Below are positions 458 to 4,056 of a stretch of 4,423 nucleotides of DNA, piece after piece. Source of the DNA: a virus. Its lineage: Duplodnaviria > Heunggongvirae > Uroviricota > Caudoviricetes. The DNA lies in the IMG/VR virus record IMGVR_UViG_2531839239_000021; one strand, 5' to 3'. Within the stretch, counting starts at the first letter, position 1; each line of letters begins with the position of its first letter. Under the pieces are notes generated by a model, which worked only from the letters and a program-made list of their open reading frames with translations, had not been told where the DNA came from and made no database searches. Made by a program: the position numbers and the translations under genes.

Positions 458-1549
458 TCACCCCCTGAATCCCGGCGGAATTTCGGTATCCGGTTCAGAA
501 ATATGATTCACACAACGCTGGTTGTTCGTGCCGCTTACCGGGAGCAACCAGGGGTTTTCAAAATTCCGGTCCGGCCCAAAAAACGTCGTCGCTCGCTGAA
601 CAAATTCCGTTCCCGCTTTCCCGGTCGCCGCCAGGTATCTCGCGTAACGCCTCACACCATCCAGCATGGTCTCTGGTGGCACCCCCTCGCGCAATCTGGC
701 CTTCCAGGCACTGAAAGCGGATTTCTTCGGGTTTGCCCCAGCACGCAACGGGTATTCCCGCCAGACCTGTTCGAACACATCCGGATAATCCACTCGTCCC
801 ACAGACTGCCCGGTGCTTTCCGGGACTACCCGATCGGCTTCCCGCTGAATGGCGGAATCGGCTTCAGGCTGCTGCAGTTGGTGTGATTGCTCCGACCCTG
901 CGGTCATCACCTGCTGCACAGCGCCCGAATCGGCTTCCGGTGTCGTGCCTGCTGGCTGACCAGGATTGACGGTCTGAACATCCCCTGCCTGGTTCGTGGT
1001 GTTTTTTTTGCCATGAACCATAGTGTTTTTGTCCTGTTCCTGTTCTTTCTCCTGCTCCTGTTCCTGTTCTTGGCTTCGAAGCCCCTTAAAAGCCCCTTCG
1101 AAGCCCCTTACCGAATTTCGGCTATTATTCCGCCTCACATCCAGATGGAAATCCGTTTTATATCTGTCGTAAAACACTGACAGAAAAGCGTTTTCAGGTA
1201 ATGATGCATACTCATTCCTGACACCTGCACAACGGTTATCGCCAGGCTTCAACGTTTCCCCAACCTGCCAGGCTGCCATTTCATGGACCCAGACCATCTC
1301 TGCATCATGGTCATAGCTACAAAAACCAGCTTCAACAGCCCTTTTAAGCCCCTTTGAAGCCCCTTCCAGACCAAGCCCGGTTTCATGAGCAAGGTATAAA
1401 ACTGGCAGGTAATACAAACCCAGCATATTTGCGTGAGGGGATGTCATCAGGTAAAAAGCAACAACTTGCGCTTCTGCACCCGCCTTTCTAAGTTCTCTCC
1501 CCGTTTCTCCCAGCCAGAATCGCGGAGAAACTTTTGCGTAATCACGCAT
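458..1549 (-). CDS. Phage replication initiator / replisome organizer (lambda O-like role), about 363 aa; alternative upstream ATG at 1660 would give 400 aa
   Basis: Long minus-strand ORF 458..1660. I prefer ATG 1549 (MRDYAKVSPRFW...) because it is preceded by GATGAGGTAGCC (GAGG, 5-nt spacer), whereas ATG 1660 has no SD. Stop TGA (460..458) lies inside the SD of the downstream DnaC-like gene, implying coupling. It sits immediately upstream of a helicase-loader gene and contains internal DNA repeats like the origin inside lambda O. The C-terminal region (AFSAWKARL...GVRRYARYLAATGKAGTEFVQRATTFFGPDRNF) resembles phage replication-initiator C-terminal domains as I recall them; exact family not verified. 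Confidence 0.8.
   Translation of the reverse strand: MRDYAKVSPRFWLGETGRELRKAGAEAQVVAFYLMTSPHANMLGLYYLPVLYLAHETGLGLEGASKGLKRAVEAGFCSYDHDAEMVWVHEMAAWQVGETLKPGDNRCAGVRNEYASLPENAFLSVFYDRYKTDFHLDVRRNNSRNSVRGFEGAFKGLRSQEQEQEQEKEQEQDKNTMVHGKKNTTNQAGDVQTVNPGQPAGTTPEADSGAVQQVMTAGSEQSHQLQQPEADSAIQREADRVVPESTGQSVGRVDYPDVFEQVWREYPLRAGANPKKSAFSAWKARLREGVPPETMLDGVRRYARYLAATGKAGTEFVQRATTFFGPDRNFENPWLLPVSGTNNQRCVNHISEPDTEIPPGFRG
1033..1068. repeat. Tandem hexamer repeat (CCTGTT-like x6) inside the replication initiator gene, encoding an EQ-rich linker (QEQEQEQEKEQEQ)
   Basis: Plus strand 1033..1068 = CCTGTT CCTGTT CTTTCT CCTGCT CCTGTT CCTGTT. Units are multiples of 3, so the minus-strand reading gives an alternating Glu/Gln low-complexity segment. 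Confidence 0.85.
1076..1110. repeat. Candidate iteron cluster B: three tandem copies of AAGCCCCTT (minus strand AAGGGGCTT), period 11-12 bp
   Basis: Exact AAGCCCCTT at 1078..1086, 1090..1098 and 1101..1109. The 11-12 bp period is not a multiple of 3, so successive copies are read in different frames; conservation is therefore at the DNA level. Confidence 0.6.
1336..1365. repeat. Candidate iteron cluster A: two exact and one degenerate copy of AAGCCCCTT, period 11 bp
   Basis: CAGCCCTTT at 1336..1344 (degenerate), AAGCCCCTT at 1346..1354 and 1357..1365. Same 9-mer as cluster B, about 250 bp away, both inside the replication initiator gene. Confidence 0.6.
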
Positions 1550-1766
1550 GGCTACCTCATCTGGTGCCGAACCTTCCTCCGGATATAATCTGTGGTTCCC
1601 AATCGACAGAACCAGAGGAGGTTCGACATGTATTTTTTGAAAAGCCTTTATCAGGCTCATGTATTAAATGTTGCAGCAACAAACCGCTGGTGTAACAGCC
1701 CCGAAATGCTCCCGGATTACAGAGCCTGGCTGCGCGCCGAAACATACCTTCGTCTCGACATATTGA

Positions 1767-2276
1767 TTAGCGAACTTCAAAAAGAGACTGCATCCATTCA
1801 TAACCTTCAGGGTATCGACGCTGTTCGCATTCTGGTATCGCGCCATAGTGCTCTCTCAATAATTGAAGTGCGTCATCTCTCTTTTTCTGAACTGATTTTC
1901 TTGCTTCAACCAGCTCTGGAATCAGCGAATATCCCGCCGGAAGTGATCCAATACCCACCTCATGTTGACGAGCAGTTACAAGATGTGCCATACAACCAGC
2001 GTGCTGGATTGACTCCCTGCTCAGAGGCTGAATGGGATCACTCTCTGCTGAAGAAATACCAAGATTTGTATAATCCTCAATAAGCCCGGCACACGCTTCT
2101 GCATCAGCCAGCTTTATTCTGGTTTCCTTGCGCTGTTCTCTGGCTGACAAACGCCAGAGCAGCGCATTAGCTTTATGTATCAACCACTCTGCCAGCTCCA
2201 CATCAGATAAACCGCCACGCCAGATGTGCGGACTGTTTTCGTAAACGCTCAGTGTCAATTTTTTGTCATTACTCAT
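1767..2276 (-). CDS. Hypothetical protein, 169 aa, between the YdaT-like gene and the replication initiator
   Basis: Minus-strand ATG at 2276 (MSNDKKLTLSVYENSPHIWRGG...), 13 nt after the YdaT-like stop, with a weak GGGT upstream; the track's GTG at 2327 would overlap the YdaT-like gene by 38 nt. Co-directional with the flanking operon. In the first 60 codons about 64% of first codon positions are purines (33% G), which is gene-like. No family recognised. It competes with antisense plus-strand ORF 1592/1628..2083, so confidence is moderate. Confidence 0.55.
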   Translation of the reverse strand: MSNDKKLTLSVYENSPHIWRGGLSDVELAEWLIHKANALLWRLSAREQRKETRIKLADAEACAGLIEDYTNLGISSAESDPIQPLSRESIQHAGCMAHLVTARQHEVGIGSLPAGYSLIPELVEARKSVQKKRDDALQLLREHYGAIPECEQRRYPEGYEWMQSLFEVR

Positions 2277-2289
2277 ATTTATTACCCAA

Positions 2290-2715
2290 TTAATGCACAG
2301 CCAGAGTGTTTCCTGCCGGGCCACCACGATTCATCTGATCGAACAGAACGATCGCTGATGCAACGAAATCATCAATATCTTTCACCAGCCGTTCCTTCGT
2401 CTCTACCAACTCCCGAAAATAAGCGGAACTGTGGCTGCGCATTCGGGCCACCAGCGGAGGCGGCATCGCTTTTTCGATCGCTGGTAACAACGCCTGAATT
2501 TTTTTAACCGCATCAGGAGTGTCTTTCTCCACCCAGCGGAAAATTTTCTGAGTATTGCGAGCCATGGCTTCCGGATGGCTGTCGTCATACAGTTCCGGGA
2601 ACGTCATTCCCAGCTCGAAATACGCTTTGGTAATTTTCGCAGCCGGTACTTTTTCGCCGTCCGGATGCGCCCAGACATTCATCGCCATGCGGATGTGTTC
2701 ATGCTTGATTTTCAT
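2290..2715 (-). CDS. ydaT: YdaT-like protein (Rac-prophage YdaT family; reported as the CII-equivalent of Rac-type switches), 141 aa
   Basis: Minus-strand ORF MKIKHEHIRMAMNVWAHPDGEKV...NTLAVH. The start ATG shares the 4-nt ATGA overlap with the stop of the upstream YdaS-like gene (2715..2712). The N-terminal MKIKHEHI and the position directly after a ydaS-like gene match my recollection of Rac YdaT; family call from memory, not a search. Confidence 0.65.
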   Translation of the reverse strand: MKIKHEHIRMAMNVWAHPDGEKVPAAKITKAYFELGMTFPELYDDSHPEAMARNTQKIFRWVEKDTPDAVKKIQALLPAIEKAMPPPLVARMRSHSSAYFRELVETKERLVKDIDDFVASAIVLFDQMNRGGPAGNTLAVH

Positions 2716-3111: not shown

Positions 3112-3483
3112 ATGCAAAAAAAAGAAATTCGCCGTTTACGTCTCAAGGAGTGGTTTAAAGATAAAACTCTGCCACCCAAAGAGAAGAGCTACCTATCTCA
3201 ACTAATGAGTGGGAGAGCCTCGTTTGGAGAAAAGGCTGCCAGAAGAATAGAGCAAACATACGGGATGCCGGAAGGGTATCTGGATGCGGAATACGCAGAA
3301 CAACCGGGGGGTTCTCCACCACATGCAGGGTTAACGTCTAATCAACTGGAATTATTGCAGATTTTTTCAGCCTTCCCTGAGGATGAGCAACGCCAGATAA
3401 TCAGCGAGTTAAAGCAGAAAAAAGAATCAATGGAAGATCTCATAGCGAGATGGATTGCGGCGCAAAAATGCCGCCGCGCCTGA
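3112..3483 (+). CDS. paaR: HTH transcriptional regulator in the CI-repressor position; first gene of a three-component TA operon (PaaR-like), 123 aa; the track's GTG at 3049 is a possible but less likely start
   Basis: ORF MQKKEIRRLRLKEWFKDKTLPPKEKSYLSQLMSGRASFGEKAARRIEQTYGMPEGYLDAEYAE... Divergent from the cro-like gene and followed within 20 nt by the antitoxin and ParE genes. Contains the motif SYLSQLMSGR, which is also present in the YdaS-like protein. The paaR name is my recollection of the E. coli O157:H7 paaR-paaA-parE systems and is not verified. Confidence 0.7.
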   Translation: MQKKEIRRLRLKEWFKDKTLPPKEKSYLSQLMSGRASFGEKAARRIEQTYGMPEGYLDAEYAEQPGGSPPHAGLTSNQLELLQIFSAFPEDEQRQIISELKQKKESMEDLIARWIAAQKCRRA

Positions 3484-3503
3484 GTTATAAAACCGGAGGA
3501 AAC

Positions 3504-3695
3504 ATGAATAGAGCCCTTTCACCAATGGTTTCTGAATTTGAAACCATTGAACAAGAAAACAGTTACAACGAATGGCTGCGTGCGAAAGTAGCAACGAGCC
3601 TTGCAGATCCGCGCCCAGCAATTCCCCATGACGAAGTTGAGCGCAGAATGGCAGAACGCTTTGCTAAGATGCGCAAGGAACGGAGCAAGCAGTAA
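3504..3695 (+). CDS. paaA: Small antitoxin of a ParE-type toxin-antitoxin pair (PaaA-like), 63 aa
   Basis: ATG 3504 preceded by GGAGGA (3495..3500). Translation MNRALSPMVSEFETIEQENSYNEWLRAKVATSLADPRPAIPHDEVERRMAERFAKMRKERSKQ. The TAA stop (3693..3695) is 1 nt before the toxin ATG. Size, charge pattern and position immediately upstream of a ParE-family gene fit an antitoxin. The track ORF 3450..3695 includes an unlikely N-terminal extension. Confidence 0.8.
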   Translation: MNRALSPMVSEFETIEQENSYNEWLRAKVATSLADPRPAIPHDEVERRMAERFAKMRKERSKQ

Positions 3696-3696
3696 A

Positions 3697-3975
3697 ATGT
3701 TACCCGTGTTATGGCTTGAAAGCGCAGATACCGACCTAGATGATATAACTAGTTATATTGCTCGTTTCGACATAGATGCGGCTGAACGCTTATGGCAGCG
3801 ATTAAGGGGTTGTGTGCTGCCGTTATCCGAACATCCGTATTTATACCCACCAAGCGACAGAGTACCTGGCTTGCGTGAGATTGTAGCCCACCCTAACTAT
3901 ATAATTCTATACCGCGTAACAACATCAAGCGTTGAAGTAGTAAACGTGATCCACGCAAGACGCCAGTTTCCCTAA
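3697..3975 (+). CDS. parE: ParE/RelE-superfamily toxin (ParE-like), 92 aa
   Basis: ATG 3697. Translation MLPVLWLESADTDLDDITSYIARFDIDAAERLWQRLRGCVLPLSEHPYLYPPSDRVPGLREIVAHPNYIILYRVTTSSVEVVNVIHARRQFP has the ParE/RelE hallmarks (W..A..DL..I..YI, GLREI, YRV, V.NVIHARR). The track ORF 3601..3975 begins at an upstream ATG inside the antitoxin gene and is not the likely start. Confidence 0.88.
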   Translation: MLPVLWLESADTDLDDITSYIARFDIDAAERLWQRLRGCVLPLSEHPYLYPPSDRVPGLREIVAHPNYIILYRVTTSSVEVVNVIHARRQFP

Positions 3976-3993: not shown

Positions 3994-4039
3994 ACATAAC
4001 AACCGCAACGACTTTATCAAAAGCGTTGTGTTTGTTATG
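3994..4039 (+). terminator. Imperfect 16-bp inverted repeat downstream of the toxin gene; candidate weak terminator or protein-binding site
   Basis: CATAACAACCGCAACG (3994..4009) and CGTTGTGTTTGTTATG (4024..4039) are reverse complements apart from two positions (one a G-U wobble in RNA), with a 14-nt loop. The stem is A/T-rich and no clean U-tract follows, so terminator function is uncertain. Confidence 0.3.
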
Positions 4040-4056
4040 TCCCGCGGTTTAGTTTT

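Follow-up and report, generated by a model that had tools for sequence, protein, structure and literature searches.

The DNA considered here is a stretch of 4,423 nt, called the window below, from a virus of the Caudoviricetes (IMG/VR virus record IMGVR_UViG_2531839239_000021). In its middle lie two open reading frames (ORFs) on opposite strands whose 3' parts occupy the same DNA. The minus-strand ORF is called gene B and the plus-strand ORF gene A. The initial annotation had drawn attention to gene B, an ORF of 169 codons at 1767-2276 between a YdaT-like gene and the replication genes, and this was borne out by the ORF and its translation (ATG at 2276, stop at 1767-1769, minus strand), which begins MSNDKKLTLSVYENSPHIWRGGLSDVELAEWLIHKANALLWRL. 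The slot had been taken for one extra gene of the early operon. That part has to be revised, as the slot holds a two-gene cassette with overlapping genes on opposite strands, and the gene that RefSeq annotates there is the one on the other strand (NF033230). The coordinates are collected in Table 1.

Table 1. Positions of the antisense gene pair, its signals and its neighbours in the window (CDS, coding sequence; PGAP, Prokaryotic Genome Annotation Pipeline; RBS, ribosome-binding site; TSS, transcription start site; SD, Shine-Dalgarno).
Feature	Position	Strand	Description
Gene A (antisense partner)	1628..2083	+	151 aa, 456-nt PGAP/RefSeq CDS; opposed to the early operon
Gene B (flagged gene)	1767..2276	-	169 aa, PHROG 8304; same orientation as the early operon (ydaS-ydaT-...-replication genes)
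Antisense overlap of genes A and B	1767..2083	both	317 nt, convergent (3'-to-3')
Gene B private N-terminal coding part	2084..2276	-	residues 1-64, outside the overlap; conserved motif SPHIWxGGLxxxELAxWLxxKANA
ydaT-gene B junction	2277..2289	-	ydaT stop at 2290-2292; weak RBS GGGT ahead of the gene B ATG
Gene A promoter	1561..1589	+	-35 CTGGTG 1561-1566, 17-nt spacer, -10 TATAAT 1584-1589; block conserved in all lineages
Gene A TSS	1597	+	EDL933 CP008957.1 position 1257177 (minus strand there); conversion verified on sequence
Gene A Shine-Dalgarno AGAGGAGG	1614..1621	+	6 nt ahead of the ATG
Conserved inverted repeat	1568..1625	undecided	arm 1568-1582 (promoter spacer) complementary to 1612-1625 (covers the SD); inner hairpin 1589-1610
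Mobile cassette, ~745 bp	1545..2289	both	from the replication gene start (ATG 1549, minus) to the ydaT stop
YdaT-like gene	2290-2715	-	Pfam YdaT_toxin
DnaD-like replication gene	458-1549	-	PHROG 1701
Toxin-antitoxin module	3112-3975	+	three genes, PaaR2-like / PaaA2 (Pfam PF21217) / ParE (PF05016), as in CP-933P/M

The gene B product is covered from residue 1 to 169 by positions 1-169 of the profile phrog_8304 (E=4.2e-120), a PHROG of unknown function that also matches 29 of the 29 aligned relatives. Its homologs reach down to 25-35% identity. A word-indexed search found 9 clusters of the family, and an exhaustive profile search found ~23 at 50% identity. By its phrog_8304 match, its remote homologs and a ratio of nonsynonymous to synonymous rates (dN/dS) of 0.24 in its private part, gene B is judged to be more than a chance ORF. 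An upstream GTG start at 2327, giving 186 aa, found no support; in other lineages both the conservation and a GGAG-like RBS begin at the ATG. The name 'Rha family transcriptional regulator, partial', found in the gene B cluster, belongs to YdaT fragments that were mis-clustered there. The original annotation of EDL933 called gene B in a 185-aa form (AAG55469.1 / Q8X4I3). In RefSeq, the records that contain this DNA leave it unannotated, and PGAP does not call it. No NCBIfam model matches the gene B product, so it falls outside the cutoff of NF033230, a name which belongs to the plus-strand ORF at 1628-2083.

Gene A is named 'ECs1072 family phage-associated protein' by PGAP, and its product is identical to WP_000273724.1. 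The NCBIfam model NF033230.2 (phage_ECs1072) matches residues 4-145 of this product with 105.7 bits at a cutoff of 70. The family contains 29 clusters and extends down to 33-40% identity in Klebsiella, Enterobacter and Yokenella. The NF033230 entry provides a name only ('hypothetical equivalog') and its definition is silent on an antisense partner. The relatives of gene A are collected in phrog_5286 and those of gene B in phrog_8304, which is without annotation; PHROG records no link between the two and does not note that the families overlap. Annotation of the locus has been inconsistent over time. The EDL933 annotation of 2001 took the minus-strand ORF, and the NCBI family of the plus-strand protein is still named after ECs1072. 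In the Sakai genome (NC_002695.2, 1169360-1169815) the tag ECs_1072 has been dropped and only ECs_5703, which runs against the early operon, is kept. The microarray expression value listed under the Sakai tag ECs1072 of 2001, which may refer to either strand, was left out. The literature searched under ECs1072, WP_000273724, AAG55469, Q8X4I3 and the PHROG identifiers returned nothing beyond one microarray table.

For the analysis of the overlap, DNA from ~35 distinct loci was compared. The gene B frame proved to be conserved. Both ORFs are open and keep the same frame relation in ~20 distinct lineages (24 loci examined), which belong to Escherichia, Salmonella, Klebsiella and Enterobacter and differ down to ~33% identity. 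The overlap is 317 nt in the window and 257-323 nt in the 24 loci, a long one by the measure used for antisense overlapping pairs (>90 nt). Every locus fetched through the gene B family also carries a gene A that overlaps gene B. In the register of the overlap, the first codon positions of the two genes pair with one another, and the third positions of either gene pair with the second positions of its partner. The stop position of gene B is conserved in two classes (relative positions ~200-206 or ~137-143). When either protein was held fixed and its synonymous codons were resampled, 1-4.7 stops were expected in the other frame of the overlap. None was observed in 17 of the 17 representative lineages, in both directions.

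Synonymous and nonsynonymous rates were determined from seven phylogenetically independent close pairs, and the pair counts are small. An OLGenie-style code was used, a simplified re-implementation with no simulation-based calibration. Its first run with all pairs was affected by saturation and was replaced by the independent close pairs. Since the lineages are related, per-locus probabilities cannot simply be multiplied. In the private stretch of gene A the difference rates at its own codon positions 1, 2 and 3 were 0.32, 0.21 and 0.54, and in the private stretch of gene B the differences peaked (0.55) at its own third codon position. The profile in the overlap was almost flat (0.39/0.39/0.45). 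For the gene A frame, dNN/dSN (N, nonsynonymous; S, synonymous) was 0.16 in the private part versus 0.28 in the overlap (p=2e-14 in the overlap), the dN/dS of gene A ranging from 0.16 to 0.28. The own-frame dN/dS of gene B was 0.24 in the private part and, calculated naively, 0.81 in the overlap. The synonymous rate of gene B fell from 0.43 in the private part to 0.14 in the overlap (p=4e-11), and that of gene A from ~0.40 to 0.23 (p=0.001). The latter drop supports selection on the gene B frame within the overlap. The amino-acid rate of gene B did not differ between the private part (0.103) and the overlap (0.111). These rates point clearly to purifying selection in both private parts and in the gene A frame of the overlap. 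Judged by them, gene A is the more constrained of the two, and it is probably the older occupant of the shared DNA. From the sequence comparisons as a whole, both genes are with good confidence real, overlapping and under selection as coding sequences.

The signals of gene A are well defined. In uninduced EDL933, Cappable-seq detected its TSS in six of eight conditions and assigned it to RS32100 (PMC10469882, supplements 7 and 8). This TSS is separated from the TATAAT by 7 nt (8 nt past its last base) and precedes the gene A ATG by 31 nt. The sequence aAGGAGGttcgacATG precedes gene A in nearly all lineages, and the conservation of the leader extends ~85 nt upstream of the ATG and then ends abruptly. 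The leader also contains the inverted repeat of Table 1. It folds with z=-3.0 on either strand; 83% of its alignment cells are paired versus 35-54% in slid controls, and four pairs show compensatory changes. RNAalifold recovered a 5-bp hairpin only and not the long-range pairing between the SD and the anti-SD arm. Counts of wobble pairs did not assign the repeat to a strand, and Rfam gave no match within the cassette. Since the mRNA of gene A starts at 1597, it lacks the anti-SD arm, and only transcripts reading in from upstream would sequester the RBS. This arrangement is reminiscent of the fold-back insulation of IS10. A second antisense TSS was found at 1464 on the plus strand, inside the replication gene (CP008957.1 position 1257310, minus strand there), in most conditions. 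A transcript from 1464 would contain the anti-SD arm and would read into gene A.

The signals of gene B are those of a downstream gene in an operon. Its start lies 13 nt past the ydaT stop, and an RBS of the GGAG or GGGG type stands 6-9 nt upstream of the start in most lineages and is weaker in the window copy. A search for a promoter of its own found none. In the available portions of a 2020 preprint on uninduced EDL933 (10.1101/2020.11.18.388249), the antisense ORFs listed as transcribed, ribosome-footprinted or candidate do not include gene B, and its overlap part occurs only in the bulk BLASTp table. Such an absence is expected for a gene in a repressed early operon, though it is absence of evidence.

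The two genes appear to travel together. The conservation across lineages also ends abruptly just upstream of the gene B start. The statement in the initial annotation that ydaU follows ydaT directly in Rac was correct: Rac has no cassette, and its ydaU begins 12 nt after ydaT. The view of the slot as accessory cargo also holds. Of 5426 complete E. coli genomes, 457 have the cassette, nearly always at >=99% identity, and the flanking genes are far commoner. Many O157:H7 genomes show 100% identity to it across 1600-2300. Outside E. coli the cassette occurs in unrelated early-operon contexts. In Klebsiella and Enterobacter prophages it is found between cro and cII-like genes, and also preceding various replication modules; in Salmonella elements it is flanked by Cox-like and Ash/RecE genes. 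In every context examined, gene A is opposed to the surrounding early genes and gene B is aligned with them. From this distribution, our reading is that the pair forms a horizontally mobile two-gene cassette in the early operons of temperate enterobacterial prophages. The cassette was seen only in prophages and in metagenomic viral contigs. A tblastn search with the gene B product against the deposited phage genomes of INPHARED gave no match, and two pattern scans of genome contigs gave pattern matches and no confirmed relatives.

The structures of both proteins were predicted with AlphaFold. Both products are soluble and mildly acidic, with masses of 19.2 kDa for gene B and 17.5 kDa for gene A. 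The gene A model is a compact all-helical domain with a predicted local distance difference test (pLDDT) score of 89.8 and a predicted template modelling (pTM) score of 0.86. The gene B model is elongated and helical (pLDDT 74.5), with a very confident long helix at residues ~25-70 (pLDDT >90 at residues 21-60); its confidence drops after residue ~70. The initial annotation had found no recognisable motif in gene B and called it uncharacterised, which the wider searches upheld. Pfam, NCBIfam and PADLOC gave nothing informative on function for either protein, a profile search of the PDB sequences gave no match for either, and Foldseek against the PDB gave no significant match for either model. 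The gene A model had none in BFVD either (best E ~1), and its top fold matches (Bcl-2-like, TM ~0.25, E ~1) are not meaningful. The defence models of PADLOC-DB 2.0 matched neither the gene B product nor the gene A product nor three distant gene A relatives. The toxin and antitoxin families in Pfam, NCBIfam and PADLOC matched neither protein; the nearby PaaA2/ParE genes are a separate system.

The gene B family shares the N-terminal motif xPH(I/V)(W/Y)xGxLxxxELxxW, and the motifs LGxSxxxxDPIxPLSxEAI and PxGYSxLPxL are conserved inside the overlap. The same N-terminal motif is present in an unrelated early-operon protein just upstream of the gene B homolog in two of the compared loci, L042 and L043 (hhalign probability 90-92%). 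These two proteins (L042:145-531 and L043:131-484) have 117-128 aa, begin KxEPHVYAGNLSPEEL, and one of the two matches phrog_37051. In addition, the stand-alone 68-aa family phrog_1744 is weakly matched through the N-terminal part by 10 of 29 gene B family members. The shared motif suggests an N-terminal module common to several early proteins, and the sequence pattern is consistent with a short early gene having grown into the 3' part of gene A.

The explanation that we favour for the whole, with somewhat better than even confidence, is a mobile cassette of two convergent, antisense-overlapping genes whose expression is reciprocal between the lysogenic and the lytic state. Gene A, with its own sigma-70 promoter and strong RBS, is transcribed in the uninduced lysogen. 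Gene B would be made only after the early (PR-type) operon has been released from repression; its expression is tied to this release because no promoter of its own was found and its start follows the ydaT stop by 13 nt. The early operon that contains gene B is known to be repressed in the lysogen (PMC8630535). The first ~64 residues of gene B are encoded in private DNA and the last ~105 in DNA antisense to gene A's 3' two-thirds. During lysogeny, gene A would be on and gene B off. After induction, early transcription would have to cross gene A head-on in order to reach the replication genes. The head-on passage would cause transcriptional interference and produce complementary RNA of at least 257 nt, so that gene A would be silenced and gene B produced. 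The geometry is of the excludon type, as gene A is placed within one operon, with ydaT on one side and the replication genes on the other. Whether A and B are expressed reciprocally through convergent transcription is, by this arrangement of signals, about an even call. The most likely roles suggested by the arrangement are a lysogen-expressed accessory ('moron') function for gene A and an early lytic function for gene B. That the two proteins have antagonistic functions is a tentative idea and rather improbable.

Several points weigh against this explanation. Transcription and translation of gene B from the early operon are deduced from its orientation and position. The dNN/dNS of the gene B frame in the overlap, 0.51 (p=4e-4), is taken alone moderate evidence and not clearly separated from its control, a minus frame that is not an ORF, which gave 0.62 with close pairs (not significant) and 1.40 with all pairs. 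In the long form of gene B the final ~20 codons look unconstrained (dNN/dNS 1.07), and the structural model of gene B is only moderately confident (pTM 0.39). Most copies of the cassette lie in cryptic prophages, where selection may be weak. Gene B is also naturally dispensable: L049/L050 and L055 lack it, frameshifts split it in L038 and L047/L048, and its N-terminus is cut in L053, all with gene A intact. A 1-nt deletion at 2243 truncates it to 31 aa in five complete E. coli genomes (e.g. CFSAN027343), where gene A is again intact, as it is in all fetched loci. These losses also serve as a natural control in favour of dual coding: where gene B is gone, its former frame contains 3 stops (L049) and 6 stops (L055). 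In the tree of gene A proteins, the loci without an intact gene B are nested among pair-carrying lineages; therefore the missing or broken copies are regarded as secondary losses.

Under one rival explanation, the real gene B product is no more than a short N-terminal protein of ~60-80 aa, and the C-terminal ~100 codons are read-through into the antisense of gene A. The tail may then be kept free of stops for ribosome cover against Rho-dependent polarity before the replication genes, or it may merely be tolerated. In its favour, short forms are known: the product has 83 aa in L047/L048, and there are representatives of clusters with 68-99 aa. Other early proteins carry the N-terminal motif by itself, and 10 family members weakly match the stand-alone phrog_1744. 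The unconstrained last ~20 codons, the value of 0.51 weakened by the control of 0.62 and the fall of AlphaFold confidence past residue ~70 are in line with it as well. However, the synonymous rate of gene A is ~40% lower in the overlap (p=0.001), which needs some constraint at the sequence level, and the amino-acid rate of gene B there equals that of the constrained N-terminal part. Conserved gene B motifs inside the overlap and a stop position conserved in two classes are likewise not what a tolerated tail predicts. The short form is accordingly considered unlikely, at about the level of an outside chance that should be kept in mind.

Less likely still is the view implied by RefSeq, in which only gene A is real and gene B is a shadow ORF conserved via gene A and the neighbouring regulatory DNA. 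It would account for the omission of gene B by PGAP, for its repeated loss or breakage next to an intact gene A, for its absence from the uninduced EDL933 transcript and footprint lists in the portions available, and for the weak RBS of the window copy. It does not account for 64 private codons with a third-position peak and a dN/dS of 0.24, which are unlike non-coding DNA, or for a frame that is open in all 17 lineages against 1-4.7 expected stops and decays once the gene is lost. A GGAG-type RBS at the conserved gene B start in most lineages also speaks against it. The reverse, that only gene B is real and gene A is the shadow, corresponds to the initial annotation and to the original EDL933 annotation, which called the minus ORF only, and it is effectively refuted by the mapped TSS, the canonical promoter, the near-invariant AGGAGG RBS, the stronger purifying selection, the high-confidence compact fold and the curated NCBIfam model of gene A, and by its staying intact where gene B is gone.

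The surroundings of the pair were also analysed. The window is assigned to the immunity and early region of a CP-933M/P-type prophage of E. coli because of its gene set and an exact copy of the YdaT operator TTGATTTTCATGAATCAA at 2705-2722. A YdaS/Cro-like gene and the toxin-antitoxin module lie downstream of the immunity switch. The ydaS/repressor region differs from that of CP-933M, and the alignment to O157:H7 covers just 65% of the window (at 99.7%), from which the window is taken to be a mosaic of two immunity types. The start of the replication gene was placed at 1549, just outside the cassette edge, because of the PGAP call and the PHROG match (from residue 38); its longest ORF, from an ATG at 1660, would overlap the start, RBS and promoter of gene A. 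An apparent second YdaT site, TTGATTAGCGAACTTCAA (1763-1780, 2 mismatches), was judged unlikely to be real and treated as a coincidence, with 4 matches against 2.9 expected by chance. It sits exactly at the gene B stop, within the conserved LDILI motif of gene A. YdaT is a tetramer (PMC9986795) and could bridge two sites. Just past the ParE stop, at 3994-4040, there is a strong inverted repeat, ACATAACAA...TTGTTATGT, which is probably the terminator of the toxin-antitoxin operon. The Rfam match to mir-4703 at this position (E=0.25) is weak and meaningless.

Convergent sense/antisense regulation of the excludon type is familiar from lambda, with the oop RNA against cII and transcription from PRE against cro. 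The likeness is that an opposed unit lies just downstream of the cII analogue in the early operon, the place taken in lambda by the counter-transcribed oop RNA, and that the transcripts must be complementary and collide. The difference is that gene A encodes a conserved 151-aa protein and that the overlapped early segment is a conserved ORF and not cII. The architecture of the window is the same as that of CP-933P and CP-933M of E. coli O157:H7, with PaaR2-PaaA2-ParE2, YdaS and YdaT (PMC8630535, PMC9986795). Both studies end at ydaT; the passages searched speak of the genes beyond it only as replication genes or hypothetical proteins. No description of the A/B pair was found in the literature searched.

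As far as is known, most antisense overlapping genes of enterohaemorrhagic E. coli (EHEC) and Pseudomonas sit wholly within an older gene; many are young and of narrow taxonomic range, and expression data are their main support. They resemble the A/B pair in that opposite-strand ORFs share hundreds of bases and pipelines keep one of them. In contrast, genes A and B share only part of their length, tail-to-tail, with a private coding part on either side, and the pair occurs across genera and is mobile; gene B, for its part, is so far known from sequence. The EHEC and Pseudomonas cases comprise nog1, laoB, ano, asa, pop and three more in EHEC, and olg1/olg2 in Pseudomonas (PMC9927249, PMC5960689, PMC6294744 and PMC8850804). 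The A/B pair is an instance of a known but contested kind, antisense overlapping protein genes, that is conserved across genera and mobile as a unit.

Long antisense overlaps of protein genes are disputed in bacteria, and annotation pipelines suppress such ORFs by rule. For hundreds of E. coli genomes RefSeq leaves out the conserved gene B, and past annotations of the locus picked opposite strands. The A/B pair has the opposite evidence profile to the disputed cases, with deep conservation, private segments that calibrate the tests, natural losses and a fixed geometry. It is a clean test case for two proteins sharing DNA, inside the well-studied CP-933M/P immunity switch, and it could show whether convergent transcription makes two prophage proteins mutually exclusive between lysogeny and the lytic state. 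Beyond this, we put forward as a doubtful but attractive idea that the cassette is an ancient mobile dual-coding pair of antagonists, in which A would be, for example, an exclusion, defence or prophage-maintenance factor, B its early-lytic neutraliser or replacement, and the switch between them would be hard-wired by convergent transcription. If this antagonist reading were true, the pair would be among the best-conserved antisense protein-gene overlaps in bacteria and phages and would represent a new lysis-lysogeny regulatory module.

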